A stretch of DNA of 64,000 nt, from the sequence record OP595145.1, one strand, 5' to 3'. Origin of the DNA: Escherichia phage vB_EcoM_DE16. The position numbers were made by a program, and so were the translations under genes. Shown here in pieces: positions 10,865-29,700 of the stretch. The notes below the pieces were generated by a model. It had not been told where the DNA came from and did not search any database. It saw only the letters and a program-made list of their open reading frames with translations. The stretch's first letter is position 1, and each line of letters begins with the position of its first letter.

Positions 10865-10890
10865 ATACCTCGCTTCGGCGGGGTTTTTTC
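10865..10890 (+). terminator. rho-independent terminator after tape measure gene
   Basis: CCTCGC-TTCG-GCGGGG stem-loop followed by TTTTTT. Confidence 0.6.
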
Positions 10891-10897
10891 GTTTCCC

Positions 10898-10927
10898 TTG
10901 ACACGAAGTTTCTATATGTGTTACAAT
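10898..10927 (+). promoter_or_regulatory. sigma70-like promoter, TTGACA-N18-TACAAT
   Basis: Consensus -35 directly after the terminator, 18-nt spacer, upstream of the 10987 ORF. Confidence 0.35.
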
Positions 10928-11690: not shown

Positions 11691-12104
11691 GTGACAACTT
11701 ATTCTAAAACAACAAGGTCTACAAGTAATACAGGCTACAGTGCAGTTTATCTGGAGGACCATTCTACTTATTTTGCATGGTATCTGAAAACTGAAGAGTA
11801 TCCTGATCAAACATATACAGTTACATTGGATGGAGTTGATTATGACATTCGTTTAAGGTGGAACACTAGGGACGAGTCTTGGCAATGTCAAATAGGATTA
11901 TCTGGAGATGATCCAAGTATAAGTTTCAAAGTTACAAACGGTTTAGATCTTCTTAAACCTTATAAATATCTTGAAAGTGTGCCAGATGGTCAATTGTATA
12001 TAGTAGATACAGTTAAGATTAATGGTCGTCCTGGGTATACAACTACAGGTCGAGATAAACGTTTTGTATTGGTTTATATTGATAACAAACCTAATCAGGC
12101 GTAA
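11691..12104 (+). CDS. hypothetical tail/baseplate protein
   Basis: 137 aa, GTG start directly after upstream stop. Confidence 0.4.
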   Translation: MTTYSKTTRSTSNTGYSAVYLEDHSTYFAWYLKTEEYPDQTYTVTLDGVDYDIRLRWNTRDESWQCQIGLSGDDPSISFKVTNGLDLLKPYKYLESVPDGQLYIVDTVKINGRPGYTTTGRDKRFVLVYIDNKPNQA

Positions 12105-12113
12105 GGAGATAAT

Positions 12114-13124
12114 ATGGCAGAAAGAGAGTATACAAAAGCTCCTGCCCCTAATTTAAACAGGGCATACAAATTATTAATTGGTTCTGCCACAAACACAATA
12201 CAGAAGAGAACTAAGAACTCGGCATTTAAATCTACAGTAGATTTGGATACCAAGTTAGGGACAACAGAAAAATCCTCTTCTAATTTGTATTTGTTGCAAG
12301 ACCATCAAATAACCTTCAGTATTAAGAAAGATAATAACAAAGATCCTAACCAAGCAGAGATTGTAGTTTATAACCTTTCGGATGATACTGTTAACTATAT
12401 AAACCGTGGTATCCGAAATAACTTGGCTGTTGCTTTAGCGGTAGGATACGCAGGTGAAGAGTTGGTTATGATCTTCAAAGGAACTATCCAGTGGGTTAGT
12501 GATACTTTTGACTCGGTAGACAGGAAAACCACTTTACACTGTTTGGATGGTGGTATTAACATTGCAGAAGCAAGAACAAGCCGCAGTTATCCAAAAGGAA
12601 CTAAAATCAAACGTGTTGTGACAGATTTGGTAAAGGATTTAGGAACTACAGAAGGTAATATACACGTAGATAATGATCAAACCTTATCTTCAGCAACAGC
12701 TATGTGCGGAAACACTTCACATTACCTAGAACATATTTGTAAGAGTATTGATCACAATGTGTCAATACAAGATGGATCTGTTTACGTTACTCCTCGTTCA
12801 CAAATGTCTAGTGCACGTAGCGCCTACATTAGTCCTGAAACTGGTCTGATAGGAAGTCCAGAACCATTCCACAACGATATAAAACCTACTAAAAAAGTTA
12901 CCAAGTCCTCTAAGAAGGCAAAGAAACCTACAGACGGTGTTAAATTCAAATGCCAAATGAATGGTGCAATATTACCAGAAAAAACAATCTGGTTAAAAAG
13001 CCGAGATTATGATGGTCCATTTAAAGTAGTTTCTGTTTCTCACAACGGAGATAAAGAAGGTAAAGAGTGGGTTACTGAAGTGGAATGTGTATCCGTGTCT
13101 GAAATAATGACTAAGGAGAAATAA
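12114..13124 (+). CDS. baseplate hub-like protein (putative)
   Basis: 336 aa; RBS AAGGAGA; precedes the spike gene; assignment by position only. Confidence 0.3.
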   Translation: MAEREYTKAPAPNLNRAYKLLIGSATNTIQKRTKNSAFKSTVDLDTKLGTTEKSSSNLYLLQDHQITFSIKKDNNKDPNQAEIVVYNLSDDTVNYINRGIRNNLAVALAVGYAGEELVMIFKGTIQWVSDTFDSVDRKTTLHCLDGGINIAEARTSRSYPKGTKIKRVVTDLVKDLGTTEGNIHVDNDQTLSSATAMCGNTSHYLEHICKSIDHNVSIQDGSVYVTPRSQMSSARSAYISPETGLIGSPEPFHNDIKPTKKVTKSSKKAKKPTDGVKFKCQMNGAILPEKTIWLKSRDYDGPFKVVSVSHNGDKEGKEWVTEVECVSVSEIMTKEK

Positions 13125-13858
13125 TGGATGCATTGAATTTTGTCACAGCAATGCGTGGCTTAATGACAGAACAATTAGCAGAAGTCCATACAGCCTTGCC
13201 AGTCCGTGTGACTGGCGTTAATTATGGTGCTAAAACTGTCACCTTAGAATCTATTGTTAAAAACACACGATCTAGTGAAGATGAAATAGATTATCCTACT
13301 TTTGAAGATGTTCCTTTTATGGTTAATGGTGGTGGGACAGGAAGAATCTCATTCCCTATTAAAGCTGGCGATTTAGGAACTGTTATATTTTCTGAAAGAG
13401 ATCCTTCTAATGCACTGCAAACTAGTGGGGAAACCTCTTCATCATCCACTTTTATGCAGCCTTGTGGATTATACCCTATTTGTTTTATTCCTAAAATAGC
13501 TACAGGAACAGATTCAACAGAAGCTGTAGATTCTGAAAAGGTAGTTATTTCTAATAACAAAAACACATACGCTTCTTTCGATCCTACAGGCAATATTTCA
13601 ATATGGAATAGTCAAGGGATGAAAATAGATATTACTACCTCCGGTATTACTATTACAGATGGCACAGGGACTTTGGATCTAAAAGGTGGTAATTTAACTT
13701 TCAAAGGCGGCGTAGCAGATATCAATGGTCTTAAAATAGATCAGAACGGTTTGATGACAGATGGTAATGGCATCGGATTCCATACTCACACGCACACGGT
13801 TCGTAACATTCAGAGCGGTAGCTCAAGTGCCGAGTCCTTAAAACCAACAGGAGCCTAA
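13124..13858 (+). CDS. baseplate central spike protein (P2 gpV / gp5-like)
   Basis: 244 aa; C-terminal GIGFHTHTHTVRN His-x-His motif typical of metal-binding spike tips; precedes a gp25-like gene. Confidence 0.55.
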   Translation: MDALNFVTAMRGLMTEQLAEVHTALPVRVTGVNYGAKTVTLESIVKNTRSSEDEIDYPTFEDVPFMVNGGGTGRISFPIKAGDLGTVIFSERDPSNALQTSGETSSSSTFMQPCGLYPICFIPKIATGTDSTEAVDSEKVVISNNKNTYASFDPTGNISIWNSQGMKIDITTSGITITDGTGTLDLKGGNLTFKGGVADINGLKIDQNGLMTDGNGIGFHTHTHTVRNIQSGSSSAESLKPTGA

Positions 13859-13859
13859 C

Positions 13860-14486
13860 ATGGGAATCCCTTTTGACTTAAAACTTGGACCAAACAACGA
13901 CCTCATCATGGATGATGGGGATTTGGTCCTCACTACAACCAGAACAGAAATTGCAGCACAAACTCTTGGGATAACTCTGAACACGTATCGTGGGGAGTGG
14001 TTTTTAAATACTAACTTCGGTGTTCCTTACTTACAAGAGATTATTGGTGTTGCTAGAAAGAAAGATATTGTAGACAGAATATTTTTAGCAGAGATTGCCA
14101 AAAACGTTTACATAGATACAATAAACAGTTATAAATCTGCTTATGACATGGACCAACGTTATTATTCAATGACAGTTATGGTCACAGTTGGAGCAGATAC
14201 AGTAACATCTATATTCAATACTCAACCTTCTGAAGAGTTTATTTACCCTGAAGCTGGTGAAGACAATGCAGCGATCATTTGTGAAGCTTACAGTATTGTT
14301 GAGAATTCGAATAGACTTTATCGCTTTATCAACTTTGTTGGTTTGCCACGTGATACCTACTCTACTTGGTGGAATGAATGGTCTACAGAGTCAGCAGTGG
14401 AAAGAATCATGGTTAACGAAAAAGGTGATGCATTAGCTACAAACAATAATTTCGGTATAACAGCTATGACAGGAGTAGAAGAGTAA
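13860..14486 (+). CDS. baseplate protein, gp25/gpW-like N-terminal domain
   Basis: 208 aa; N-terminal TYRGEWFLNTNFGVPY resembles the GPW/gp25 signature; follows spike gene. Confidence 0.45.
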   Translation: MGIPFDLKLGPNNDLIMDDGDLVLTTTRTEIAAQTLGITLNTYRGEWFLNTNFGVPYLQEIIGVARKKDIVDRIFLAEIAKNVYIDTINSYKSAYDMDQRYYSMTVMVTVGADTVTSIFNTQPSEEFIYPEAGEDNAAIICEAYSIVENSNRLYRFINFVGLPRDTYSTWWNEWSTESAVERIMVNEKGDALATNNNFGITAMTGVEE

Positions 14487-14959
14487 TGGCAGATTTAACT
14501 ACGATCAAAATTTCTGATCTTACACAAACAACCTCTGTGTCTGATACAGATTTCTTTGTAACAGATCAGGCTGGAATAACAAAGAAAACTTCTTTGAAAG
14601 TGCTGTTGAGTGGTGCAGGGGTAACTAGAAACCGTCTGAATGCACGGGGAACAGTAACTAGCACCTTGGCATTAGATATTAGTTCGGCAGAATATTTTTC
14701 AGCAACTTTATCTTCTGCAACGTGCACAATTAGTTTTACTAATATTCCAGTAGCAACAAATGCAGTTTTAAACTTTACTTTAGCTTTGCGTCAAGGAAGT
14801 GGTGCAAATAAAGTCGTATGGCCTTCTTCTGTAAAATGGAGTTTTGGTCGTTCCCCAGTTTTGAGTTATCGTCAAGGTGCAACAGACACTTTTGAGTTTA
14901 TCAGTTATGATAATGGTGCAACTTGGACAGGTAGCTTAGTTTTAGCAGGAGTTATTTAA
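14486..14959 (+). CDS. hypothetical tail-associated protein
   Basis: 157 aa; ATGA overlap with upstream gene. Confidence 0.4.
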   Translation: MADLTTIKISDLTQTTSVSDTDFFVTDQAGITKKTSLKVLLSGAGVTRNRLNARGTVTSTLALDISSAEYFSATLSSATCTISFTNIPVATNAVLNFTLALRQGSGANKVVWPSSVKWSFGRSPVLSYRQGATDTFEFISYDNGATWTGSLVLAGVI

Positions 14960-17835
14960 TGTCAAGAGTTAAGCACAATATTGACAACACGTTTCAGTTG
15001 ATTGAAGGGTTGGTTCAGTTTTTGGAAAGAAATACTGGGCTTACCATAGATCCTACGGTTCAGCATTACATTATCAACCCACAAAACGTATTGGCGAACA
15101 ACAGACACTTTATTAACTGGACAGCGCAGGAAGGGCAACCAAACGGTGACGCTACTACCGAAGGTCAATCTGTGCTTATCACTGGTTTTGCCTATGCATA
15201 TTTGGCTACAGGGGATAAAAAATATCTTGAATCTGCCGAGAAGTACTGGCAAGCCTATATAGATCACTTCTTCGGGGGCCAACCTATTCCTGATCCTCCG
15301 GCTAAGTATCGTCCCAACTGGATCATCAATGGTAAAGAACCACGTTTAGCACATTACCCTCTCACAGATGATGGGTATCCTACGCACGGTGGGTTCAAAG
15401 GTAGCATGATGACTTGGATTAACGGAAGGACTGTTATTCCTAAAGGTGCACCGCATTGGGGGGAATACTTAGATAAAGCTTGGTTTGCTTTCAATGGCAA
15501 TCTTGGTTGGAACTCCGTTAACGCAACAGTTTATGCAACTAACCCAGATGGTTCAACTAACTGGAAAGAATATGGAGATCAGTGGGACGTTGAATGGATT
15601 ATAGATCGTCTAGGACGTAAAGTTGATTGGGATGGTAACATTTTATCTACAGGTCACAGCTTCGCAGAATATGGAACAGTGCAACTTAAAAATGCTTCTG
15701 TGAACGGTGATTATAAATTCAACTACGCTACATGCAACCCTGTAGAACACGGTGGATATCTGCTTAAGCGTAATGAGATGTGGCATAACCGTCCTGTAAA
15801 CGTTCCGGTAGAGTTAGGTTATCAAGATAATGCTTCCGATGCTGAAACGTGGTGGTGTGATGCAAACTACTTGATGTATCAGATCACAGGAGAGAGAAAA
15901 TACTGGCTTTGCTGGCAATCTTCTTTATTGTTGTGTCAAGACTACTCAAACATCGATATGTTTGATAAATTCTTCCGTAGATCTACGACAGCAATAATTC
16001 CTTTTACAGATGGTATCTCGTATGATTACTCATACCCATCTACAGCAATACCTAAATATTCTCGTGATGAATTAGGATACACAGTAATTCGCCAAGATGT
16101 TTCAGCACAAACAACTCTAGAACAACAGGCAGTTTGGTTCAGAGTGGATCAGAATTCAAAACTGCGTATTGAGTTTCAAGGTGTAGATGATGCAGGGGAA
16201 GGTGTTCTTTTCCGTCCAGAGCTAGAATTAAGCAAAACTAAGAGTGAAACAGACACAGTGACATATCGTTGTGGCTTACCTCTTGGTGCAGCTAATATGA
16301 CTAAGATGGATATACCTTTATCCAGTTTTATGCGCACCGAACCTCCTGGAGGTGGTGTATATATTATTGCTGAACCCAGAATTATTGTTGACTGGGGAAG
16401 CAATACTGTGATACAATATAAATATGCAACTGGTATTGCTGGGACAAATAGTGATCAGATAGTTTCTGCTAATATGGATTCAGATGGTGGTTTTACTGTT
16501 GGGTTTTGGTTAACACCAACTAAAACAGCCAATTTAAAATCTATTACATATCGTTCATACGCAGATGATTTTAACATCACTATTACGGATTCCGCAGGTT
16601 GGAGATGGTGGGCCATGTTAGAAAAAACAAATTCTGCATGGGTTACTAAAGCTTTAAGTCCTGCTGATTTCAAATTAAGCACTTGGCAACCCAATCATAA
16701 CGACACAGAGACAAAACCTTCGTCAATAAACCTGACTGCTGTTGATCAGATCAACATTGCATTGGATTCTGAACCTGCAAATGGCTTGACAGGGGCAATC
16801 GATTTTTATTGTGTTAACGATATCCCATCTTTGTATTCTTCAGCCGCTGGTGATGATTACACAATGTATTTCAGGGTTACAGTTTCATCTGAAAATCCTT
16901 ATACAGCAAAACTTGGAGATTGTACAATACTGGACTATAAACTTGACAGTTTGAATTATACTCCAGGAATCATTCCATTTTCCAATATTAGTGATCCTAA
17001 CACAGCATTATATGACGGTTGGCGTGGTATTCCTTACCCAGGCTATCAATACCCATCCTTATATTGTTTTAAAGGGAGAGATATTGACTGGGTTCGTATG
17101 AACAACAGTATAGACTTTTTATATGATTCACAAATGTGGTTTTATAATAAGTTTGCCCCTGTGATGCCTGGGCCAATGGCACAAGCTTATGTTTGGGATC
17201 GTTGGGATGCTCATAAATACGGAAACAAGAATGAGTTCACAATGTATCATTGGAACGATAAAGCTTGGGATGGTTATGAAGCACGAGCATTCTTCTGTGC
17301 GTGTCATACAGTATACGAACTGAAGCAACGAGGAGCAGAAGTTCCTGCAAAACTTTTAACAGTTTGTAAAAACTGGATCAATTATCTGAAGTGGTTCCAA
17401 GATAACAACGAAGGAAGAACACCAACAATATTTTATCCCAACGGAGAAGTGGCTGCGCCTGTAGATGACTTTACAAGTCACATGTCTGCGCTCTTTATGG
17501 CGGGATGTGCTATAATGGGGATGGCTGGATATGATTCAGAAATTCCTAACATTAAAATAGTAGCAGATCGCTGTTTTGAACTTATTCAGGAAAATTATAT
17601 TGTTCTTGGTCCTAATCACGTTATGAATGGTTGTTGGAGTGCTGCCCCTAGACCAGACAGTGATAACGGAGTCTTCTTTGGCTTCCACGCCGGAGAGTTG
17701 TTACGTGGTTTTGGGTTGTATGCCTTATACAAAAAACTTAATCCCCAAAATGCATTACCTGTTTTGGATTCGAGCAATATTCCTGCACTTACTGTTTTGA
17801 CAATGGCAAACATTAGTGTGGACGTTACCGAGTAA
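14959..17835 (+). CDS. large tail-associated protein, possible carbohydrate-active (W/Y-rich) domain
   Basis: 958 aa; aromatic-rich composition suggestive of a glycan-binding or hydrolase fold; no catalytic motif identified. Confidence 0.35.
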   Translation: MSRVKHNIDNTFQLIEGLVQFLERNTGLTIDPTVQHYIINPQNVLANNRHFINWTAQEGQPNGDATTEGQSVLITGFAYAYLATGDKKYLESAEKYWQAYIDHFFGGQPIPDPPAKYRPNWIINGKEPRLAHYPLTDDGYPTHGGFKGSMMTWINGRTVIPKGAPHWGEYLDKAWFAFNGNLGWNSVNATVYATNPDGSTNWKEYGDQWDVEWIIDRLGRKVDWDGNILSTGHSFAEYGTVQLKNASVNGDYKFNYATCNPVEHGGYLLKRNEMWHNRPVNVPVELGYQDNASDAETWWCDANYLMYQITGERKYWLCWQSSLLLCQDYSNIDMFDKFFRRSTTAIIPFTDGISYDYSYPSTAIPKYSRDELGYTVIRQDVSAQTTLEQQAVWFRVDQNSKLRIEFQGVDDAGEGVLFRPELELSKTKSETDTVTYRCGLPLGAANMTKMDIPLSSFMRTEPPGGGVYIIAEPRIIVDWGSNTVIQYKYATGIAGTNSDQIVSANMDSDGGFTVGFWLTPTKTANLKSITYRSYADDFNITITDSAGWRWWAMLEKTNSAWVTKALSPADFKLSTWQPNHNDTETKPSSINLTAVDQINIALDSEPANGLTGAIDFYCVNDIPSLYSSAAGDDYTMYFRVTVSSENPYTAKLGDCTILDYKLDSLNYTPGIIPFSNISDPNTALYDGWRGIPYPGYQYPSLYCFKGRDIDWVRMNNSIDFLYDSQMWFYNKFAPVMPGPMAQAYVWDRWDAHKYGNKNEFTMYHWNDKAWDGYEARAFFCACHTVYELKQRGAEVPAKLLTVCKNWINYLKWFQDNNEGRTPTIFYPNGEVAAPVDDFTSHMSALFMAGCAIMGMAGYDSEIPNIKIVADRCFELIQENYIVLGPNHVMNGCWSAAPRPDSDNGVFFGFHAGELLRGFGLYALYKKLNPQNALPVLDSSNIPALTVLTMANISVDVTE

Positions 17836-17843
17836 GGGGTAAA

Positions 17844-19997
17844 ATGAAACAAGCTATATTTACTGTCACGCGAGACAAGAGAGTAAATGCGAGTTCATTT
17901 AACTACACGACTGTTGATGGAACAGCAGTCGCTGGTAGAGATTATATTGCAAAATCGGGAACACTTGTGTTCCCTGATGATGCTGATTCTGCTACTATTG
18001 TGGTTGAAGTATTTGAACGACCAAAGAACTCAATAGATCTTAACTTCTCCCTCCAAGTTTCAGGGATTAGTCAAAATAATATGATGGTTGAAACAACCAT
18101 CAATTGTATTATAACTACTATCCAAGAAAATACCACTCCAATAACTTGGACTACAAAAGACGTTAAAATGTTCTCTCCTATGTATTGGACAATAGATTCT
18201 CAAGCAACGGAAAGTTGTTCTATTGTATCTCATGGAGACTCTTTTACTGCAAGATTTGTAAACAGAACAACAGCAGGTTTGGCAGGGGTTATCTGGAGCA
18301 CAGTTGACAAATATGACCATAAAGGTGTTGGGTATTTACCCCACACAGATTTAAGTTCAGAGAAACTTTGGTTTAAAATGGAAATTAGTCAAAACATGCC
18401 AGGTTTTAAAGAAGAACCTTTGGTGCCGACTTTGACTGTAACTCTCCTGGATAAAAGTGTTCATTATGTCAGTTTAGGATTCTATGCTTCAGATATTTCA
18501 GAAGATGGTAAAACAGCCACAATCAAGCTAGATTTTGGTAATATCTTTTCTGGCCCTAATAATGATATTCCTTTGGATATGAGTGCCGTAGACAATATTT
18601 TCTTCTCTTTGATTACAGCAAGGTATGAAGAAATAGAGGAGATTGTACCTATTGACAGTCAAGAGGCTTGGTTTACTTTCACTCTTCTTGAACCTACTTC
18701 TGGTTATAGTATGATGAAAGTCAGCAACCTTGTCCAGCCTGAACATGATATTCGCATGTGCACATCTTATGATGATATGTATAACCTGACTCCAGAGAGA
18801 GTTATTTATAATACATATGCACTAGGTTATCGTGGAATGATTAACCATTACAACGGAATGTCTCACTATTATGAGTTCTCATGGAACGGAACATCTTGGG
18901 CTTTAAATAGATCTGTTTTCCTGAATCCGGCTACAGAAGCTTGGCTTAACAGTTTCCATTCTATAGCTAATGAAAATGGCTACACAATAATGAACTCTTT
19001 GAGTTTTGAGTTGATGAGCACAGTTTGTCCTGTAGAATGGGTTCAACATGATTGGAACGATGCTCTTGCAGCAACAGGTTATAAGCCGCCTAGCTATGTG
19101 TTATCTCCAACAATTGATGAAGGTATGGAATATTTGCAAAATGTTATTAACAAAATAGCATCTATTTCTCAAGCTAACAATATTCCAATCGTTATTCAAA
19201 TTGGTGAACCTTGGTGGTGGTATAATACAGCAAGTAAAATGCCTTGTATATATGATTACACTACCAAACTGGCATTCAATACTGAAACAGGCTTATTTGC
19301 ACAAGATGCAGGAACTATAGATAATTATAAAACAGGAACACCATTTGACGAATACTATGCATTTTTGTCTCGTAAACTAGGGTTAAGAGTTACAAAGTTT
19401 GCAACAGACACCAGAGCAACTTATCCAGGAGCTAAAGTAACATTGCTTCCGTTCTTACCATCAATTATCGGCAACGGTTTGATGGAGAAAGTTAACTTTC
19501 CGTCTGATTACTACATTCCTGAAGCTTTTGATTTTTATTGTTCAGAGTGTTACGACTGGCTTCTGGAAGGTAAAATGATGAAAGCATTTGATGCAATTAC
19601 CATACCACATGAAAAATTAGGTTTTGAATATTCTGATATTCACTATCTTGCAGGTTTTGTTCCAGATGCTACTCTTGCACCTTTGTATGGCTTTGATCCT
19701 GAATCAAACTACCGCACGTATCTTTGGAAAATGATTATAGGTAATATAGTGTTGAACGCCAATAAGTTCAATGGACTTACACAATATATATGGGCCTATC
19801 CTCAAATAATGCACGATTCTATCACGGTAGTTAATTCTCAATCCCAAGTTTTCTATATGGGTAACGTGCCTTTGAACGCTTATTTACAGGATATCACTCT
19901 TAAACAGGTAAATGTTGAGATTGCCACCATAAGTGGAATTACATTAGCCACTAAATCTGGAGAAGATTTAGTAACAACACAAAAATTTTATATATAG
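17844..19997 (+). CDS. tail-associated protein with N-terminal Calx-beta domain
   Basis: 717 aa; N-terminus FNYTTVDGTAVAGRDYIAKSGTLVFPDDADSATIVVEV matches the Calx-beta signature. Confidence 0.55.
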   Translation: MKQAIFTVTRDKRVNASSFNYTTVDGTAVAGRDYIAKSGTLVFPDDADSATIVVEVFERPKNSIDLNFSLQVSGISQNNMMVETTINCIITTIQENTTPITWTTKDVKMFSPMYWTIDSQATESCSIVSHGDSFTARFVNRTTAGLAGVIWSTVDKYDHKGVGYLPHTDLSSEKLWFKMEISQNMPGFKEEPLVPTLTVTLLDKSVHYVSLGFYASDISEDGKTATIKLDFGNIFSGPNNDIPLDMSAVDNIFFSLITARYEEIEEIVPIDSQEAWFTFTLLEPTSGYSMMKVSNLVQPEHDIRMCTSYDDMYNLTPERVIYNTYALGYRGMINHYNGMSHYYEFSWNGTSWALNRSVFLNPATEAWLNSFHSIANENGYTIMNSLSFELMSTVCPVEWVQHDWNDALAATGYKPPSYVLSPTIDEGMEYLQNVINKIASISQANNIPIVIQIGEPWWWYNTASKMPCIYDYTTKLAFNTETGLFAQDAGTIDNYKTGTPFDEYYAFLSRKLGLRVTKFATDTRATYPGAKVTLLPFLPSIIGNGLMEKVNFPSDYYIPEAFDFYCSECYDWLLEGKMMKAFDAITIPHEKLGFEYSDIHYLAGFVPDATLAPLYGFDPESNYRTYLWKMIIGNIVLNANKFNGLTQYIWAYPQIMHDSITVVNSQSQVFYMGNVPLNAYLQDITLKQVNVEIATISGITLATKSGEDLVTTQKFYI

Positions 19998-20005
19998 GAG
20001 TAAAA

Positions 20006-21946
20006 ATGTCAACTACAATTACTAATTTACCCGAAACATCAAAAGTTAATGATTCTGATTACCTGGTTTTAGACCAACCTGATAAGACTGTTAAAAGCAC
20101 AGTTTCCAACTTTCTTACTGACACTGGGGTGGTTTTAGCCACCCAGTTGAAAGATACAGATGGAGCAGATTTAATACAATCCTCAAATGGTAATACTGTT
20201 CAGGAAGAGTTGAATAACAATCTTCTTAATGATCGTGAACAGTGGCGTCGTAGTCTTGCTGAGGCTGGCTTAACGCTTGTTGATGGTAGTTTTGAAGACG
20301 GTGCTACAGCAAATAGTAAAACTGATGCCGTTTGGTATAGGACAGGAGGTCAGTGTTATGTGTGGGATGGTGTCGGGGTTAAAAATGTACCTGCTAAATC
20401 AACTCCAACATCAACTGGCGGGGAAGGGGTTGATAAGTGGCTTAATGTTAGTAATGTTACACTTAGGAGTGGGATAGTAGCCTCTATAAATCCAGTAGAT
20501 AATCTAAGCGCACTTAAATCGTCCCTTGCATCAAAGAAGATAACCACATTAACTGAGGCTGTAACCACTACGGATGTAATTATTGTTCCTTCCTACAGTG
20601 AGTTAAGAGGCATTGGTCATAATATAGGAATCATTGCACAACAACCGAAGCCGCAAAAAGTAATATCAAAATCTGGAAATAAAAAATATGATTTTGTTAA
20701 TACAAATAAACCACTTCAGTCGAGAGATGCAATATTAGCTATAGATCCTGCGTGGATTGACGGAGTATACCCCCAACATACAATAATCGATGGGGTATCC
20801 TTACTTGGTGATCCATCCAGTAAAAATGATGTCGGGCTATTTATTTTTCAGGGTGGAAATTTCACCATCAGGAACATGCAGATAGCGAACTGCCTAGACG
20901 GGATTCTTAGCAGTGGCTGCTGGATTAGTCGCTTTGAGAACGTGAGTGCGCTTGGTGGCAGTCTGGCTTTTAATGGTGGCACAAGCCATGTATTAATTGG
21001 GTGCGCTGCCTGGGCTACCGCTGAGAATGACGGAGCATTTTATTTTAATGACGTAACATACAGCAGCATGGTTGGATGCACATCTGACCACTCGGAAGCT
21101 CCAGCTAACTTCTTCAGAGATGGCGTGCAGATGACCATGGTTAACTGCGGAAGCGAGTTCGCTACCTCACCGGGAGGTGGTGTTGGTAGCATGATTGCGT
21201 CAGCAGGTGCGGGCAATAAAATCACGGTACTTGGATATAAAGGGGTTCCAAAGGCTGGGCAGACTGACCCGCTAATTAGTATTTCAGAAAACAGTACGAT
21301 GCACATTATCAATTGGTACAGCAATGAGCCAGACTATCCGAATAGTTTAGACGTCAGTGTAAATGGTGACGGAAGCACTATTATTGTTGAAGATAGTATA
21401 TTCTCTGGAGGCCGAACCCTGCCGGTTGTACAGTTCAGGGGCAACCAACCGAACAGTAAAGTTATTGTTAAGAGCGGCGGTAATGAATATGTATATACCT
21501 CACCTCTGGGGGGTGGTATTGTAAGTTCACCAGAACGTAAGTACAGAGGTACAACGTATACACCGAAGCTACTGGTTAATGGCGCGAATGTTGCCGAGCT
21601 AACATATTCCACTGCTATAGGTAGTGCAGTAAAGAATGGTAATCAACTAACAGTAAACTTTAATTTAGTTATATCAGCCGCTCCTTCATCCCCATCTCAG
21701 GGTACTATTACACTGGATTTACTTTCTACTGAGACGGGGTACGTTCCTGAATATGAATCGTGTGGTGTGCTAGTAGTTTCTAATGGTGTGGGTTTCAGTG
21801 GGGTGGCATGCGTAGTGTCGCCCAATGAGACTATGGTTTATTTAAAAAGCAGTGATGGGGTAAATATGCAACTACAGCATATAAAGGCAGGAACGCAAAT
21901 CAGAGGAGCGGTGACATTTAAAGTAAAAAGATCTGGTTGGTCATGA
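20006..21946 (+). CDS. tailspike / tail fiber with parallel beta-helix-like region (possible depolymerase)
   Basis: 646 aa; RBS AGGAG; central region rich in G/N/S/T/V with repetitive short beta-strand pattern. Confidence 0.45.
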   Translation: MSTTITNLPETSKVNDSDYLVLDQPDKTVKSTVSNFLTDTGVVLATQLKDTDGADLIQSSNGNTVQEELNNNLLNDREQWRRSLAEAGLTLVDGSFEDGATANSKTDAVWYRTGGQCYVWDGVGVKNVPAKSTPTSTGGEGVDKWLNVSNVTLRSGIVASINPVDNLSALKSSLASKKITTLTEAVTTTDVIIVPSYSELRGIGHNIGIIAQQPKPQKVISKSGNKKYDFVNTNKPLQSRDAILAIDPAWIDGVYPQHTIIDGVSLLGDPSSKNDVGLFIFQGGNFTIRNMQIANCLDGILSSGCWISRFENVSALGGSLAFNGGTSHVLIGCAAWATAENDGAFYFNDVTYSSMVGCTSDHSEAPANFFRDGVQMTMVNCGSEFATSPGGGVGSMIASAGAGNKITVLGYKGVPKAGQTDPLISISENSTMHIINWYSNEPDYPNSLDVSVNGDGSTIIVEDSIFSGGRTLPVVQFRGNQPNSKVIVKSGGNEYVYTSPLGGGIVSSPERKYRGTTYTPKLLVNGANVAELTYSTAIGSAVKNGNQLTVNFNLVISAAPSSPSQGTITLDLLSTETGYVPEYESCGVLVVSNGVGFSGVACVVSPNETMVYLKSSDGVNMQLQHIKAGTQIRGAVTFKVKRSGWS

Positions 21947-22112
21947 TTATATGCTAACAGGATGCTGAAGATATGGGAGTGAGTTTTCCCTTTCTTAATC
22001 TGAACTGTATATGGCATCAGTGGCGTGGATGCCCATGGATGGCACCACGCTAACTGGTGTTAATAATCTTGATTTGACTTTCTACTATTAATAGAAAAAC
22101 AAAGAGGTTTAT

Positions 22113-22421
22113 ATGAACGAAATGTTCTCACAAGGTGGTAAAGGTTCAACCGGAATCTTAACCAATAAACAAGCAGTAGCCCGTCACTTTGGAGTTAAAC
22201 AATCTGAGGTTGTTTACTTCTCAGTTGGTGTGGATTTGGGTGGGTATAAGGTTATCTATGATAAGGAGACGCAAAGGGCGTATTCCCTACCTGCTGATAT
22301 TGCCCCAGGTACTACTGCCATTAGTCTTAGTGCTGCTGTACTTGTGCATTCAGCGGGTTCTGTAGACCTTGGGGAATTAGCTGTATCTTGTGATTTAAAA
22401 AGTAATGAGAACGCACCATGA
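22113..22421 (+). CDS. small tail-fiber-associated protein, homologous to an internal module of the 26745 tailspike
   Basis: 102 aa; residues 17-92 align with the segment of the 1017-aa protein encoded around 27420-27660. Confidence 0.45.
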   Translation: MNEMFSQGGKGSTGILTNKQAVARHFGVKQSEVVYFSVGVDLGGYKVIYDKETQRAYSLPADIAPGTTAISLSAAVLVHSAGSVDLGELAVSCDLKSNENAP

Positions 22422-22660
22422 GAAAGTTTTTAATCGGAATGTTTTGTACTTATCCAAACAACAAAATCAGTTCTACTAAAGTGTGGAACGCACTGGGAAT
22501 GCTAACCATGACAGGCATGTTTATCTTTTTAGGAATAGAAAAAGAAATTCCTGAATGGATGGGTTGGGCTTTTGTTTTCATGATAACCCCTTCTCGCCTC
22601 ATGAAAAATCTTATTGATTTACGTTGGGGCAGATCACAATCTACCAAAGAGGATGACTAA
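22418..22660 (+). CDS. small membrane protein (2 predicted TM helices; holin-like topology)
   Basis: 80 aa; hydrophobic segments VWNALGMLTMTGMFIFLGI and WMGWAFVFMITP; charged C-terminus. Confidence 0.3.
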   Translation: MRKFLIGMFCTYPNNKISSTKVWNALGMLTMTGMFIFLGIEKEIPEWMGWAFVFMITPSRLMKNLIDLRWGRSQSTKEDD

Positions 22661-24147
22661 TGGACGAATATGGTTTGACAGATGCGGGATTTGTAATCCC
22701 GACTTTTGACGATGTTCTAAACAATTATATGACAGCAGTAAAAAACACATTTGGTGCAGATGCAGCCACTTCGGAAGATACTGTGATCGGACAACTGTTT
22801 AGAATAATTGCATACACAGATTACACATTGTGGGAAGGTATGCAAGGTGTTTATAATACTCAAACACTGGATGGTGCAGAAGGTATTTATCTTGACGAAA
22901 TCTTTTCTAAGCGCGGTTTCTATCGAGCAGGGGCAGCAGCAAGTACAGGTTATGCCTATGTTAAGAGTAATAACAAAGCAGCTTGGACTTATGAGTTAGG
23001 CACGGATATTTACTTCAACTCTGATAGTGATATGAACTACTATGTTAGCACACCAACTATGTTGAATGCTAAGATTGCAGCTTATCAAATCTCTCGTGCT
23101 AATGCAACTGCTACAGGTGTTCCAAATATTACTTTTTATGCACAAAGTGCGGTGGATGGAGGACTAAACAGTAAAACACTTGCACCTGGTTCTTCTACAT
23201 TTATAACCGATCTTGAAACTTTTATCAAGGCGAATTTAACAGAAGCTGATCGTAGTCTTGTATTTTCTGATTCAGGTAACTTATCAATTGGTTTTACTTC
23301 TTTAACCAGTGATACTCCAGTGGGGCTGGTAACTCCTATTAAATTTTATGCTAGTGTTCCGGTTGGAACCAAGTGGAGTGAGATTCCGGTAGTTGCAGCA
23401 GAGAAAGGATACAATCCTGTTGGTGTGGAGTCTATTACAGGGATATCTTCTACCTTTACAGGTTATCTTGATAGTGGTAACTTCTATTCATTTTCCCCTG
23501 GTCGAGATGTTGAGACAGACGCAGAATTCCGCTCTCGTTTCAATGACAACGTTGACGAAGCTAACGCAGGGACACGAGCAGCTATTGTGAAAGCTCTGCT
23601 ACTTACAGATGGTGTTACTAAGGTGAAGATTTATGATAACCCTACATTACATGATCAAGAACATGCTCCAGCTATGACTTTCCAGACTATAGTTTATGGT
23701 GGCAGTGCAGAAGAAATTGCAAATGTTATCTATAAAACCAAACCAATCAACACTTTGACACACGGAACAACTAACATAACAGTTACAACAGAAGATGGAG
23801 GACAAGAAATTATCCGCTTCTCTCCTGGTACTTCTGCTATGTATTCCGTAAAACTTGTTTATCAAACTGTCAACGGAACAACTTTAAGTGGAACAGAAAA
23901 ACAAAACATCGTAGAAGCTTTACAAAACCTGCAAGCTTACTTTGAGTTAGGTTCTTCAGTAACGAACGATCAAATCAAAGGTGTTATTTATGCAGCACTT
24001 GCTTTTGGACGCTTGACTTCTCTTCGTGTTTATGTTAAACTTAATACTGAGGATGACAGTAAATATACAGAGAATAATATAGTTCCTGCTTATAATGTTG
24101 TCCCTTCTTTTGACCTTGATAACATTTCTTACGAGTATGGAGTGTAA
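22660..24147 (+). CDS. baseplate wedge protein (gpJ / gp6-like)
   Basis: 495 aa; N-terminal region follows the Baseplate_J pattern (TLDGAEGIYLDEIFSKRGFYRAGAAASTGYAYV); precedes gpI-like and fiber genes as in P2. Confidence 0.55.
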   Translation: MDEYGLTDAGFVIPTFDDVLNNYMTAVKNTFGADAATSEDTVIGQLFRIIAYTDYTLWEGMQGVYNTQTLDGAEGIYLDEIFSKRGFYRAGAAASTGYAYVKSNNKAAWTYELGTDIYFNSDSDMNYYVSTPTMLNAKIAAYQISRANATATGVPNITFYAQSAVDGGLNSKTLAPGSSTFITDLETFIKANLTEADRSLVFSDSGNLSIGFTSLTSDTPVGLVTPIKFYASVPVGTKWSEIPVVAAEKGYNPVGVESITGISSTFTGYLDSGNFYSFSPGRDVETDAEFRSRFNDNVDEANAGTRAAIVKALLLTDGVTKVKIYDNPTLHDQEHAPAMTFQTIVYGGSAEEIANVIYKTKPINTLTHGTTNITVTTEDGGQEIIRFSPGTSAMYSVKLVYQTVNGTTLSGTEKQNIVEALQNLQAYFELGSSVTNDQIKGVIYAALAFGRLTSLRVYVKLNTEDDSKYTENNIVPAYNVVPSFDLDNISYEYGV

Positions 24148-24149
24148 AA

Positions 24150-24779
24150 ATGGCAGTGAGTGTTGACCATGTAACAACTTGGGCCAGTATCAATGAAGAT
24201 GTTAAAAACCTTCTGATTGAAGATTTTAAATCTTCTCCTAACATTGTCAAGCTCCTCTACATCGTATCCAGTGAAAAGCAAAAGATAGATCAGGCAATGA
24301 TCTATCTTGCTAAACACCGCTTGATCTCTACAGCTACAGGCAAATACCTAGATATTCTAGGGGAAGAAATGGGGATCGAACGTAATGGCTCTGATGATGA
24401 AGAGTATAGAACAATATTAAAAATCAGGGCTTACCGCGTAGCCTCATCGGGGACTCGTGGTGACATAATTGATATCTTCGCCCGTTTCACAGGAACAGAG
24501 CGTGAAACGCTTAATACTTACGTAGGTTTGAATAAAACCTTTGATGTGTTTTTCTACAACCTGTGTCTTCAATCTGATCAAGCTTTAGAGCAGTTGCTAA
24601 GTGTTTTCCCTATTATTAGTAGCTACCGTCTTGGAGCAAAAGCAGGATCAGCTTTTGGTTTTAGTTCTTATTATGCTACCAAACCGCCTCATGGTATTGG
24701 TGGTTTAGGTTCCCTGTACATGGAATCTACTGGGGATGAAACAGGACGCATGTGTACGCTTCTCAAGCAAATAGATTAA
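24150..24779 (+). CDS. baseplate/tail protein (P2 gpI-like position)
   Basis: 209 aa between J-like and tail fiber genes. Confidence 0.35.
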   Translation: MAVSVDHVTTWASINEDVKNLLIEDFKSSPNIVKLLYIVSSEKQKIDQAMIYLAKHRLISTATGKYLDILGEEMGIERNGSDDEEYRTILKIRAYRVASSGTRGDIIDIFARFTGTERETLNTYVGLNKTFDVFFYNLCLQSDQALEQLLSVFPIISSYRLGAKAGSAFGFSSYYATKPPHGIGGLGSLYMESTGDETGRMCTLLKQID

Positions 24780-24788
24780 GGAGTTTAA

Positions 24789-25850
24789 ATGGCGAAGCCA
24801 ATATATTATCCTGACTGGGCTACACAAACTGTAACGCTCCCAGGAACTTTAAACACAAACAAAATTAGACCTAAAGAAACCATCCGCACAGTTGGTATGG
24901 ATTATGGTCAAATCATGACTTGCGAAGAAATGAACTGGATTCTTAATAATATCGGTTTATGGATTCGCTATTTGGTGGATGATTTTCTTCCAACTTTACC
25001 TAATACCTACTTGCCTTTAGTGGGAACTAAGATTACAATGGCAGGTGATGCTACTGGTGAGGCCACTTGGAACGGTAACAAAGAAGTTACTTTATCTATC
25101 CAAGTTCAAGATAACAGTCATAATCACTTGTCAGCAAACATTACAGATGCTACTAGTTCAACAGTAACACCAAACGTGTTGGTAAAACGTGATGCGGGTG
25201 GTGCTATTTATGGTGGTGATGTTTATGTTAACGGTACTTCCACAACAGATCCTGCAACACTGTTCTTCAAAAACTTTGCAGGACAAACAAATGGTGAGAT
25301 TTCTGCCGAGTATCAAAGCGGAGGTCAGCTTTACATCTATCGTAGAAATCCTAACACAGGTAGTGTATTGGCAGGTGTTCGTTTATATGATGCAGGTTAT
25401 GTTCTAATAGATAATCCAAGATCGAACAGTGGACAAGATACTTCTAACGGAAATGCTTTAGTTCGTTTAGATTATCTGAACTCTCGTTTGACTTCCCTTC
25501 AGAACACATTGCAGACGAATATTAACACTGTTCAAAACAACTTGAATAATGTTAACAACAACCTCTCTTCTCGTATAAACAATGTAGAAAGTAATCATCA
25601 AAGTCAGATTACAAATAACTACAACTATGCTAACGGAACCTTTGTAAGAGATATTCGTTATACTAGCCAAGGTGTGTATTATCCGCCAGGGAACGAGGTT
25701 TCTTGGACTTATATCTGTTCTTCTGGTTATGTTCTTTCTGGTATTATCGTACAGGAAACAGGACGTAGCTCTGCGGATAACATCGGTGGGGTTTACTTCA
25801 AACGCCTCCAGCGCAACGTTAACGGAAACTGGTACGATATTGGAGGCTAA
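24789..25850 (+). CDS. tail fiber protein
   Basis: 353 aa; N/Q/S/T-rich repeat region (NTLQTNINTVQNNLNNVNNNLSSRINNVESN) typical of fiber shafts; followed by an assembly chaperone-like gene. Confidence 0.55.
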   Translation: MAKPIYYPDWATQTVTLPGTLNTNKIRPKETIRTVGMDYGQIMTCEEMNWILNNIGLWIRYLVDDFLPTLPNTYLPLVGTKITMAGDATGEATWNGNKEVTLSIQVQDNSHNHLSANITDATSSTVTPNVLVKRDAGGAIYGGDVYVNGTSTTDPATLFFKNFAGQTNGEISAEYQSGGQLYIYRRNPNTGSVLAGVRLYDAGYVLIDNPRSNSGQDTSNGNALVRLDYLNSRLTSLQNTLQTNINTVQNNLNNVNNNLSSRINNVESNHQSQITNNYNYANGTFVRDIRYTSQGVYYPPGNEVSWTYICSSGYVLSGIIVQETGRSSADNIGGVYFKRLQRNVNGNWYDIGG

Positions 25851-26396
25851 ATGATATTTACAAACTTTAAAAAATATATTCCTGAAGACCCTGAACTAAA
25901 AGAATTGGTAGAAGCAGAGAACATTCTTTTTCTTCGTTGCGATCAAGGTTACGACTGGTATGATTTACGTAGCACAGAATTCAATAACGATAAAATGAAA
26001 GTCGTTTTTGATGATCAAAATCGTATTGTGTTTTGGAATACTGATCCTACACTACTTTGCCCTGAAGATCTTTCTATAGCACAAGTAGACTTTAATATAG
26101 ATACTTTTGAGGATATTAGGAACAAGGTTCTGGATTTAGAAACCTTAACTCTTAAGGATAAAGAGTATTCCCGTGAAGAGTTGATGACACAAGCTAGTGC
26201 AAAAATTCGCTCTTTACAAGAAACAGCGGTAGCACTTATAACACCTTTACAGTATGCTAAAGATTTAGAAATGGCTACTGAAGACGAATTAGCTTATCTT
26301 AAAAATCTTCAAGTTTATGTAGTTAAACTAAATCGTGTTCCGCTTCAAAAAGACTATCCTTACGCTATAGATTGGCCTACATTACCGACAGAATAA
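25851..26396 (+). CDS. tail fiber assembly chaperone (Tfa / gpG-like)
   Basis: 181 aa immediately downstream of the fiber gene with ATGA overlap. Confidence 0.45.
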   Translation: MIFTNFKKYIPEDPELKELVEAENILFLRCDQGYDWYDLRSTEFNNDKMKVVFDDQNRIVFWNTDPTLLCPEDLSIAQVDFNIDTFEDIRNKVLDLETLTLKDKEYSREELMTQASAKIRSLQETAVALITPLQYAKDLEMATEDELAYLKNLQVYVVKLNRVPLQKDYPYAIDWPTLPTE

Positions 26397-26405
26397 GGGA
26401 TCACT

Positions 26406-26741
26406 ATGGAATTTCAAGAAGCATGGGGACTTGCAAAGGATGCAATAATCCCTTTAATCGGAGTCATCTGGTTCTTTTTCAAACAAAAAATGGATAAATT
26501 CGGCTCTGATCTTGAGGAAATGGAGGAGAAAAGTCGAGAGCTAGAGAAGAAGTTGGTCTTTGTTGAATCAACTTATGCAACTAAAGCCGAACTTACCCAG
26601 ATGCTAAATCAAATTAACTCTACATTAATGGCAAATAATAACACCCTTGAGCAAAAAATTGAAAAGATTATGGACCTCAAGAATGCGACTATCCAAATGA
26701 TGCTAGATGACATAGTTAAACGTACACAGAATAAGGGGTAA
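26406..26741 (+). CDS. small protein with N-terminal TM helix and coiled coil
   Basis: 111 aa; hydrophobic AIIPLIGVIWFFF then heptad-like helical region. Confidence 0.35.
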   Translation: MEFQEAWGLAKDAIIPLIGVIWFFFKQKMDKFGSDLEEMEEKSRELEKKLVFVESTYATKAELTQMLNQINSTLMANNNTLEQKIEKIMDLKNATIQMMLDDIVKRTQNKG

Positions 26742-26744
26742 TTA

Positions 26745-29700
26745 ATGGCAACATTCCCAACATATCCAGCAACGTCTCTCGAACAGGGCGTAGACCTGGT
26801 TATTTTCTCATCTAACCAACTCCATGATGTTATTAATGGAAGTGCTACAGAGAGTATTGAAACAGAATCAGGGTTGATACCAACCCTGAGAAAAGCCCTT
26901 GTTGACAACTTTTTCTTTAAAAGCCCATTGGATTGGGCGCAAGGCACAAACGAAACAGTTTTTAACCAACTTCGTTATTTCCAGAATGGAGTATTGAGCG
27001 GTTATTACTATGCCCCTAACGCTACATTGGTTAACCCAATCCCTATGCAAGGGACTCCAGTAGGAGATAACAACTGGGTATTGTGGGGACTGAAAACAGA
27101 ACAATTAGCAACAGAAGTCACCCCGTGGGTATACTCTGGTGCAACGGGTTATGAAACAGTAATTAGTCCTCCTTACATCTTTGATAGTGCTATTGTTACG
27201 ATCAATGGTGTTATTCAGGTTCTGGGGGAAGCTTTCCGTATAGAAGATAGTAAGATCATCTTATCTGAACCTTTGGGACACGATCCTGCAACAGGACTAC
27301 CAAACAAGCTTTTTGCTTATATTGGTAAAATCGTAGCTTCAGCAGATACAGATCCTAATCTAGAGAACCGTCTTGTTAGTTTAGAAACAAAAACGGAAGA
27401 ACTAACAGAAAGCATGGATAAAGTCCCTCTGCAAACTATTGCTCGTAAATATGGTTTGTTAGATGATGAGGTGGCTTACGCAACAGCAGGTCAATCGTTA
27501 ACAGGGATTAAAGCTCTGTATGATCCAGTAGCACAGTCTTCCTACACATTACCTCCTAACATCACAGGAACTTTAACATCCTTGTCTGTTTCTGGAGTAA
27601 TGACTTATTCTGGGGGGTCTGTAGATCTTTCTGCACTAGCTGTTGAACGTGGACAGTTTGTTCATTTGCCTACAAGCTTTGGTAATAACGTAACTCTGAC
27701 AGCTAAAAATCAGACGATTGGACGTGGTGCTGGTCGTTATCGTTGGGCTGGAAGTTTACCAAAAAGTATTTTGGCTTCTGATACATTGGAGACAAGCGGT
27801 GGATTAGGTCCAAATGCATGGGTTCTGACCAATACAGAAGGACTGTTAACCCCTCGTGGTGGAACATACAACGATTTATTCGATGTTGTCTACTTGTCAG
27901 AATTTGCTAACAACACAACAACATATACCACACCAGAAGCAGCTTTCCAAGCGGCACTGTTAGCAGCAAAAGCTTCGAAAAGCAAGATTCTCGATGCTTA
28001 CGGTTGCGATATGACTTTCACGACAAGCTCTTTTGATATTCAAGGTATCACTTTGCGTGGGGGTGTGTTCCGTGGTCAACGCGACTATCGTGTGCAAAAT
28101 GCTACAGTAGAAGGCACAACTTTCCGTAACTCTCGTGTTATGTATTGGGGTGGTGCTGTGCGCATGTTCGATTGTTTGTGGGACGGTGCTCCTCGCGCAG
28201 GTCAAGTTGGTAGCTTGGTATTCCAAGGCAACCCAATATCAGGTACTTTTGAAATTGATAATTGTACTTTTAAAAACGGGTTATACGGCATCCTTCAACA
28301 AGGAACAGGGGAACCAGTAACACGTGGTGTCTTCCGTAACCTTACCTTCATGGACATGCAAGGTGATGCAATAGAACTGAACGTCATCAATAAACATTAT
28401 GACGATGGTTGTGTGATTGAGAATATTTACCTGTCTAATATCGATGGAACTAATGCTCCTATTCCTCTGTCCAACTGGGGTATCGGTATTGGTGTAGCTG
28501 GTAAAGGACCATATGGTTACGGAATCCCTGATGATCAATATTGTAAGAATATTACAATTCGTAACGTTTTTGCAAAACGTTGCCGTCAGATTGTCCACGT
28601 AGAAGTTGGTCGTAATATCTCTATCGAAAACATTCATGGCGATCCAGACCAGACTGTATCTGTTGGGACAGGTTTGGCAACTGGCGCAGTTGTAATGTAT
28701 GGAAGTAAAGATTTTACGATTGATGGTGTTTATGGAGAGCCTAAAACAGACGGTAGCACACTTGCAAGTAATATCCGTATGATTTATTTGGAGTGGGGAA
28801 CTAACGCAGTTCTGGACGAAGAGGGTAATCCGGTAGTTCCGGCACAGGGCAGACCTTCAAATCCATGCTTTAACTATTCTGTTCGTAACATTCACACCAA
28901 AACTGGGCGTGTTTTTGCGGGAGTTTCCGCTGGGCCAGGTTATGAAAACAGAGTTAGCTTTGAAAATATTCGTTGCGCTGCATTGCAGTTGTTCGGTATA
29001 GCTTCTTGGCTTTCAATGTCTAACATCACCTGTAATATCTTCGATTGTGTTGGTCAACCTGAATCTGGTCCAGGGACATTTTATGATGGATTCTTCCGTA
29101 GAGAAAAATCTGTTCTTGAAATGGTTAACGTAAACTGTTACCCAGATGGCAAGACGATGGTTACTGGTCGTCCACAGTGGAGCCGTTGCCGTTACTCGGA
29201 TATTCATCGTGTCAACTGTAATGTTGAAGCTAATATGTATACCAATATCGCAGGTGGTATTGGAGCTATTGTAGGGACAACGGGCAAAGTTTATTACTTA
29301 GAGCCTAATCCTAGTCGAAACATTGATGGAATGCATTTCCCAACAGGGAAAGAGTTTGACAAAGGGGATATGATAGTCAAGGCGGATAATACGTTCTTCC
29401 TTGTAACAACAAGTGGGGCATATATTCCAGATATCCCAGCTTTCGGTATTCGAGCTACACAGGCAGGAGATACCTTCCTGACACAGAACTTGACTCCTAA
29501 CGGGACAGCAACAAATGCTTCTTGGTTGTATCATTACCCTCTGTCAGCAGGGACACGTATCCGTATTCCTGGTGCTGGTGTAGGTGGAGCAGATTTGGAC
29601 ACAGTTATTACTCGTGCACCTTATCAAGATAATGATACGTGGACTAACCCAGTTAAAATAGACATTGCAGATCCAATTGTAACGCCTACAAGTGCTGGAG

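Follow-up and report, generated by a model that had tools for sequence, protein, structure and literature searches.

The window analysed here is a 64-kb stretch (64,000 nucleotides) of Escherichia phage vB_EcoM_DE16 (OP595145.1), a Phapecoctavirus (phAPEC8-like, Stephanstirmvirinae). Between positions 14486 and 22660 it carries six open reading frames (ORFs) on the + strand, encoding proteins of 157, 958, 717, 646, 102 and 80 aa. The ORF map agrees in coordinates and sizes with the original prediction, which had placed six ORFs, including the three largest, between W-like and J/I-like baseplate genes. All six are real genes and not chance ORFs, as each of them has many homologs.

The left flank of the block is a gp25/gpW-like sheath initiator of 208 aa (13860-14486, + strand), orthologous to phi92 gp139. 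Its product matches PDB chain 21vq_L (Phi92_gp139) with E = 8e-102, as well as further chains named "sheath initiator", and belongs to phrog_120 (wedge subunit). It is preceded by the gene of the central spike (13124-13858), in which two Pfam spike domains were detected, and upstream of the spike there are a Dit-like tube initiator, a Pam3-gp18-type plug and a hub. The right flank begins with a J-like wedge gene (22660-24147, + strand, 495 aa; Pfam Baseplate_J), an ortholog of phi92 gp145 that matches PDB chain 21vq_h (phi92 gp145, wedge protein) with E = 4e-267, and continues with an I-like wedge gene (24150-24779, + strand, 209 aa; DUF2612, PHROG "baseplate protein"), an ortholog of phi92 gp146; the phi92 wedge assignments (gp145 and gp146) are derived from cryo-EM (PMC13450770). 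These are followed by a fibre gene (24789-25850) and a chaperone gene (25851-26396, Caudo_TAP). Past the latter, there are two more spike/fibre proteins with a Tail_spike_N domain and a large RCC1/Big_2 protein, so that three window proteins carry Tail_spike_N (646, 1017 and 674 aa). The spike domains, the two phi92 chains and Baseplate_J confirm the predicted identity of the gpV-like, gp25/gpW-like and gpJ-like genes, and the structure matches to phi92 gp139 and gp145 imply that the W-type and J-type genes are truly 8.2 kb apart.

The first gene of the block (14486-14959, + strand; phrog_9017) encodes the 157-aa protein, a candidate small partner or adaptor. Alignment of this protein revealed a conserved C-terminal domain of ~100 aa and an N-terminal part of lineage-dependent length; its residues 55-157 resemble the C-terminal ends of numerous "tail fiber" PHROGs, and no match was found in PDB or Pfam. 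The second gene (14959-17835, + strand) encodes the 958-aa protein, modelled as an (alpha/alpha)6 glycoside-hydrolase-like barrel with inserted CBM-like beta-sandwich domains, i.e., the barrel fold of GH8, GH76, GH88, GH105 and related families. The identity of this model to its structural matches, which are enzymes, is just 7-14%. It has no Pfam family at E <= 0.01, and thus no GH family membership by sequence, and a sequence search of PDB gave no match. Many Asp, Glu, Trp and Tyr residues are invariant across 43 homologs of the 958-type (43-83% identity), and full-length homologs occur in jumbo phages, 52-kb myoviruses, podoviruses and many prophages. No functional data on a 958-type protein were found in the literature searched.

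The third gene (17844-19997, + strand) encodes the 717-aa protein with three Pfam domains: Calx-beta (E = 8e-11), NCTSP_N (E = 4e-16) and TIM-barrel_NCTSP (E = 1e-78); the scores of the last two are 59.4 and 265.1 bits, compared to a cut-off of 27. It also matches N4 gp64 (PDB 9lc0_M, E = 4e-30) and N4 gp65 (E = 1e-12), which are structural subunits of a non-contractile sheath (PMC13434306). In N4 they form a heterodimer (PDB 9lc0 and 9yf4), with the NCTSP_N domain and the TIM barrel in common with the 717-aa protein. The latter, in contrast, is one polypeptide with an additional Calx-beta domain, belongs to a contractile-tailed phage, has a genome position that depends on the subfamily, and has no equivalent of the gp65 C-terminal domains, which gate the N4 plug. 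Because the tail is contractile and these C-terminal domains are absent, an N4-like sheath or plug-gating role of the 717-aa protein is unlikely, and the comparison appears to reflect homology of domains and not of role. We also considered the 717-aa protein as a spike-docking hub, on the model of N4 gp66 docking on gp64/gp65; this candidate was rejected, being unsupported by the N4 paper (PMC13434306). The 717-type family is found in Phapecoctavirus, Justusliebigvirus, Vequintavirus and N4-like podoviruses, with no homolog detected in Seunavirus, and its member has been described as a conserved deacetylase-domain lateral tail fibre protein (PMC8594841). The range of the family overlaps the set of phages reported to be dependent on the NGR glycan (PMC8669472).

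The fourth gene (20006-21946, + strand) encodes the 646-aa tailspike. A Tail_spike_N domain was found in residues 93-149 (Pfam, 48.7 bits compared to a cut-off of 25), and the AF2 model of the monomer is a beta-helix with a pLDDT of 81.8, exceeding 90 over most of residues 230-640. Foldseek matched this model with a probability of 1.0 to 6eu4 (E = 5e-12), 6f7k and CBA120 TSP1-4; the solved tailspike depolymerases that it resembles include AS12 gp42, Dettilon gp208, CBA120 TSP1-4 and K2-2. The modest TM-scores (0.3-0.45) are explained by the monomeric state of the model and its floppy N-terminus. The combination of an above-threshold Tail_spike_N domain and a beta-helix like that of solved tailspikes characterizes the 646-aa protein as a putative trimeric depolymerase, which would act on a strain-specific capsule or O-antigen. 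Structure prediction had been proposed originally as a search for depolymerase folds in the three large proteins. The tailspike matches such folds, the 958-aa protein has a glycosidase-like barrel outside of any GH family by sequence, and the 717-aa protein carries the NCTSP TIM barrel. Altogether, the domain and fold matches agree with the predicted host-interaction character of the block.

The tailspike gene is also the place where the block is variable. DNA homology to phages EF1-1, phAPEC8 and alia stops at positions 20422, 20166 and 20134 (tailspike residues ~139, ~54 and ~43, respectively) and picks up again at 22092, 22435 and 22298. The variable stretch is thus ~1.7-2.3 kb long and includes the tailspike beyond residue 43-139 and the downstream spacer. 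The swapped segment proper, i.e., the receptor-binding part with its 3' spacer (20430-22090, + strand), has a GC content of 0.432, in the top 4.5% of windows, and the 1.66 kb between the breakpoints had no blastn match among 50,697 phage records. The tailspikes of relatives from both genera, Phapecoctavirus and Justusliebigvirus, have only residues 1 to ~160 in common, with 72-87% identity, and end in a variety of C-terminal domains, among them pectate-lyase-like, beta-helix, BNR sialidase, NAGPA, GDPD, SGNH and S74 chaperone types. For the receptor-binding part of the window tailspike, the closest match is a 619-aa tailspike from ~46.5-kb siphovirus-like metagenomic contigs (91% identity, 85% coverage); the best named phage protein has 42-44% identity. 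Since the crossovers are located in the conserved tailspike N-terminus and in conserved 3' DNA, the receptor-binding part alone has been replaced. What is new in the window phage is the tailspike allele. In the phi92-like phages, the N-terminal anchor is common to the window tailspike and to sialidase-type alleles, whereas the receptor-binding part of the window tailspike is a different beta-helix allele.

Two small genes close the block. The 102-aa ORF (22113-22421, + strand; matching the N-termini of phrog_7992 and phrog_18484) is a lone tailspike anchor domain of the Kuttervirus/G7C type, standing free and ending at the point where Tail_spike_N would begin. It has 92-94% identity to residues 1-92 of Kuttervirus tailspikes and ~80% to G7C-like ones. 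This ORF is present in some phi92-like phages but not in all: its counterparts have 101 aa in PaulScherrer and 49 aa in alia, and there is none in phAPEC8. Its dN/dS is 0.30, with a dS of 0.46. The 80-aa protein (22418-22660, + strand; phrog_1322 "membrane protein") has two hydrophobic segments and a dN/dS of 0.03, and is the positional counterpart of phi92 gp144. Tail_spike_N, the beta-helix and the Kuttervirus-type anchor are all known from the branched complexes of CBA120 (TSP1-4) and G7C (gp63.1/gp66). In the window, unlike in these complexes, the anchor stands without a spike and the spike genes form two clusters, one on either side of the wedge genes; CBA120 also lacks an equivalent of the conserved 958- and 717-aa proteins.

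In P2-like baseplates, the genes V, W, J, I, H and G are contiguous. The P2 homologs V, W, J, I, fibre and Tfa are all present in the window in the same relative order, and a Mu/P2-type short fibre with its chaperone is kept after I; however, W and J, which are adjacent in the P2-like loci L010 and L063-L092, are separated in the window by 8.2 kb and six ORFs. This interruption had originally suggested an accessory insertion, in which all 8 kb would have been acquired horizontally, and a modular hotspot in an otherwise P2-like contiguous baseplate module, with synteny in related phages named as the check. The synteny comparison speaks against an accessory insertion, because related phages keep the same genes as conserved components. 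Annotated phAPEC8-like records have the same genes in the same order, and the region 12000-27000 aligns to this group with 97-98% DNA identity, always in two pieces with a gap. The order W-157-958-717-tailspike-(small ORF)-80-J-I is identical in the sister genus Justusliebigvirus (the phi92-like phages alia and PaulScherrer), where the genes gp140-gp144 of phi92 occupy the same place between gp139 and gp145/gp146; the 958- and 717-aa proteins of PaulScherrer have 83% and 77% identity to those of the window. Orthologous genes in one order in phAPEC8, EF1-1, alia and PaulScherrer are typical of the Stephanstirmvirinae lateral tail-fibre locus, and so is the combination of a fixed scaffold (14486-20150, conserved) with few allelic receptor-binding genes (20430-22090, unique). 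A total of 119 phage records from two genera carry the 5.7-kb scaffold at >=80% coverage; among these, 64 have 95-99% identity and 60 have 60-80%.

The rates of evolution point in the same direction. In the comparison of the window with PaulScherrer, the dN/dS values are 0.07 for the 958-aa and 0.12 for the 717-aa protein, compared to 0.11 for J and 0.06 for I, and the dS values of these four genes are alike (1.4-1.8). Such flank-like dN/dS and dS values indicate that the 958- and 717-aa genes have diverged in step with the core baseplate and have been constrained just as strongly. In GC content (0.36-0.40), the three conserved genes are equal to the flanks, and the only compositional anomaly in the block is the receptor-binding part of the tailspike. 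Stop and start codons overlap as TAATG at the W/157, 157/958 and 80/J junctions and as ATGA at the 102/80 junction, so that the 80-aa gene overlaps both of its neighbors and the block is translationally coupled to both flanks. Patchy presence, odd composition and loose coupling, which are expected of a recent island, are absent from the block as a whole and are found in the tailspike receptor-binding segment only. A large, mostly conserved lateral tail fibre locus with few variable genes, common to Vequintavirinae, Phapecoctavirus and phi92-like phages, has been published (PMC8594841), and homologs of the 157- and 958-aa proteins, gp43 and gp42, respectively, were detected in the rV5 virion by mass spectrometry (PMC3606486). 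Judging from these comparisons, the block appears to be this ancestral, already published lateral tail-fibre locus and not an accessory island.

More distant relatives put the location of the block in perspective. The W-small-big arrangement is also present in Vequintavirus and Seunavirus, as variants: Seunavirus has just three genes (small-large-tailspike) between W and J, while Vequintavirus has seven, with the 717-type gene placed after J-I. Since the 717-type gene changes its position or is absent, there is no obligatory link between the 958-type protein and the tailspike through it. An Erwinia phage, a relative of the Felix O1 group, keeps hub-spike-W-J-I contiguous and has a homologous small+large pair further downstream; in Vibrio phage D504, the pair follows J-I. 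As W-J-I is intact and the pair is located after I in P2-like prophages and in the Erwinia phage, it is the location between W and J that is derived when a deep timescale is considered. The broken V-W-J-I order, the difference in gene content among subfamilies and the occurrence of the 157+958 cassette in very different phages are what the accessory-insertion model explains well. It does not explain the invariant order within and between the two nearest genera, core-like evolution, coupling to both flanks, the presence of the rV5 homologs among virion proteins, the confinement of odd composition to the tailspike receptor-binding part and the small size (1.7-2.3 kb) of the variable DNA. We consider the insertion of the whole 8 kb to be quite improbable, and for recent time this reading is largely refuted. 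What stands of the original prediction is that the P2-type order is broken and that a modular hotspot is present; the hotspot (from 20167/20422 to 22091/22434) is limited to the segment of the 646-aa tailspike that binds the receptor, to which the 102-aa ORF may or may not be added.

To find out where else the 958-type gene occurs, we surveyed IMG/VR and obtained 80 loci, 72 of which include DNA upstream of the large gene. A gene with the small-partner C-domain is located directly upstream in 64/72 of these loci; in 5/72 the large protein is fused to a Tail_P2_I domain instead, and neither was found in 3/72. The contexts of the small+large pair include 11 P2-type loci (V-W-J-I-small-large), 5 phi92-type and 48 other loci. 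In the P2-type loci the pair occupies the gpH tail-fibre slot. P2-like prophages have the 157+958-type pair instead of H/G or as a fusion to I; for example, in one P2-like prophage a gpI-fused large protein directly follows V, W and J. Another fusion is the 1557-aa protein P0104 from a contig of an SU10-like podovirus, in which the 958-type body, NCTSP_N and the TIM barrel are combined in one chain. The gpI and NCTSP fusions argue that the 958-type protein is located on the wedge periphery in myoviruses and works physically with the 717-type protein. In a siphovirus-like prophage the pair lies between capsid and tail-tube genes, and in Rosemountvirus (a separate GenBank record) it adjoins neck genes; attachment to the wedge is therefore not general. 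The new result of this survey is that the 157+958 pair is a widely portable two-gene cassette.

In our interpretation, to which we assign a probability of about 0.7, the block is the first half of a conserved multi-receptor-binding locus, located between the sheath-initiator and wedge genes, in which a conserved arm would carry an exchangeable tailspike; the locus has been inherited vertically since before the split of Phapecoctavirus and Justusliebigvirus. The identities of the genes, the folds, the conservation, the recombination breakpoints and the linkage of the cassette are observed; the binding partners, enzymatic activities and substrates that we infer for the proteins are as follows. 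The 157-aa protein would serve as an adaptor that pairs with the 958-aa protein through its conserved C-terminal domain and docks on the virion through its N-terminal part, which differs among lineages. The 958- and 717-aa proteins would make up a conserved proximal arm on the wedge periphery that binds or processes a conserved surface glycan. The tailspike would dock via its conserved N-terminal ~90-160 residues and then degrade a strain-specific capsule or O-antigen, with homologous recombination diversifying the host range.

It is possible that the 958- and 717-aa proteins are purely architectural components of the baseplate periphery, in which the enzyme-like folds are inactive relics that neither bind nor cut glycans. 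Very strong conservation with core-like dN/dS values would fit such a role, and so would the lack of a Pfam glycosidase match, the 7-14% identity to enzymes and the description of N4 gp64/gp65 as structural sheath subunits (PMC13434306). Evidence to the contrary is that many Asp, Glu, Trp and Tyr residues are invariant across the 43 homologs and that CBM-like domains are retained. Moreover, the pair fills the tail-fibre (receptor-binding) slot in P2-like prophages, and a need for the NGR glycan is common to the phages with a 717-type protein (PMC8594841, PMC8669472). On balance, a purely architectural role is unlikely.

The cryo-EM study of phi92 from 2026 suggests where the proposed arm may lie on the virion. 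[quoted passage not shown] Neither the arm nor fibre II has a protein assignment (PMC13450770). In position and in its N-terminus, the 646-aa protein corresponds to gp143. Most economically, the 157-, 958- and 717-aa proteins would supply the fibre density without assignment. A search of PDB found no counterpart of these three proteins in the deposited phi92 models, and gp141 and gp142 are not discussed in the phi92 study (PMC13450770). Both facts would be expected if the large conserved proteins were non-virion proteins, i.e., soluble enzymes released at lysis or assembly factors, placed in the block for co-expression only. However, loss of fibres from maps through flexibility is usual, and fibres I and II of phi92, with density of low resolution, are stated to be affected in this way (PMC13450770); in addition, the rV5 homologs were found in purified virions (PMC3606486), P2-like prophages have the large protein as a fusion to gpI, a structural domain, and phAPEC8 gp097 has the GenBank label "putative structural protein". 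A non-virion role is thus highly improbable. A broader version of the conserved-arm reading is that the cassette is a portable "glycan-processing side fibre" across all tail types, and that the 157-, 958- and 717-aa proteins are the arm of fibre I and perhaps fibre II. Plugging the fibre into a virion would take only a changed N-terminus of the small partner or a fusion of the barrel protein with gpI. We regard this extension as tentative and somewhat doubtful.

It should be noted that the type of locus is ordinary and has already been described; the novelty of the analysis is in comparative clues on a structurally uncharacterized fibre cassette. The analysis offers candidate proteins for the phi92 fibre densities that were left without assignment in the 2026 cryo-EM study (PMC13450770), and defines a widespread two-gene fibre cassette for which a PDB sequence search gave no solved structure. 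Where phAPEC8/phi92-type phages are to be used in therapy or engineered for host range, the exchangeable DNA is the tailspike gene from residues ~43-139 onward, with conserved DNA downstream, and the remaining ~6 kb of the block is a fixed scaffold.

We also scanned the sequence for transcription signals. There was no excess of promoter matches (51, compared to 51.1 in shuffled sequences), and terminator-like sites numbered 16, compared to 9.1 in shuffles. A weak terminator-like site is located 3' of the tailspike gene (21975-21990), and a strong terminator and promoter-like pair is found 5' of the operon (10867-10927).

The 102-aa ORF (window 22113-22421, + strand) encodes a lone tailspike anchor domain, which is similar to the N-termini of Kuttervirus tailspikes (92-94% identity to residues 1-92) and ends at the exact point where a Tail_spike_N domain would start. 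Its counterpart is intact in the phi92-like phage PaulScherrer (~101 aa) and is 49 aa long in the related phage alia, and phAPEC8, a Phapecoctavirus, has none. In the comparison of the window with PaulScherrer, dS for this ORF is 0.46, far below the values of 1.4-1.8 for the neighbouring genes; this low dS suggests that the ORF was exchanged more recently than its neighbours, or gene-converted. It could be what remains of an additional spike gene, or could encode a working docking-site protein.

The same genome holds both an anchor-only ORF and a fibre without an anchor. The latter, a 674-aa protein with collagen repeats (window 29860-31884, + strand), has its Tail_spike_N domain right at the start (residues 12-77), with no separate anchor, whereas in the 1017-aa colanidase-type spike (window 26745-29798, + strand) the anchor-like segment and Tail_spike_N do not appear before residues ~229-361, being preceded by additional N-terminal domains. 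A similar arrangement is found in the branching spikes of the Ackermannviridae phage CBA120 (TSP1-4).

The virion-structural operon also contains the gene for an 80-aa protein with two hydrophobic segments (phrog_1322, “membrane protein”; window 22418-22660, + strand), for which a dN/dS of 0.03 relative to PaulScherrer indicates extreme constraint. Its homologues in Vequintavirus and Seunavirus directly adjoin fibre genes as well, but at different positions. The start of the baseplate and fibre operon is probably at 10987. Directly 3' of the tape-measure gene lies a strong hairpin resembling an intrinsic terminator, ACCTCGCTTCGGCGGGGT, followed by a T run, and 3' of this hairpin a sigma-70-like promoter is predicted (11/12 match, extended -10 TG); the two lie at window 10867-10927 on the + strand. 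A weak terminator-like site (21975-21990) is located 3' of the tailspike gene, and the structural operon ends with the gene for a “tail protein” of 890 aa, in which RCC1-like repeats are combined with a Big_2 domain (window 31926-34598, + strand).

In ~30-kb prophage contigs of Enterobacteriaceae (IMG/VR loci L022-L062; e.g., L041, 6304-10814), the small partner of the 958-aa-type barrel protein is enlarged to ~560 aa, and the pair sits between capsid and tail-tube genes, away from all baseplate genes. Another attachment site is therefore possible, and in siphovirus-like particles the same cassette may be attached elsewhere, such as to the neck or tail. Some homologues of the 958-aa protein (among P0088-P0100) reach ~1600 aa through a long C-terminal extension. 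In P0092, the sole long homologue subjected to a domain scan, the extension terminates in the glycine-rich domain PF21722, which precomputed annotations also place in several further homologues of ~1600 aa; in these proteins, the barrel protein seems to bear its own distal fibre tip.

It should be noted that several GenBank records are labelled “Campylobacter phage” (host C. jejuni; MG065650.1, MG065677.1, MG065690.1 and others). They encode proteins that share 99% identity with Phapecoctavirus or Vequintavirus proteins from E. coli phages. Probably, these records name an incorrect host or stem from contamination.
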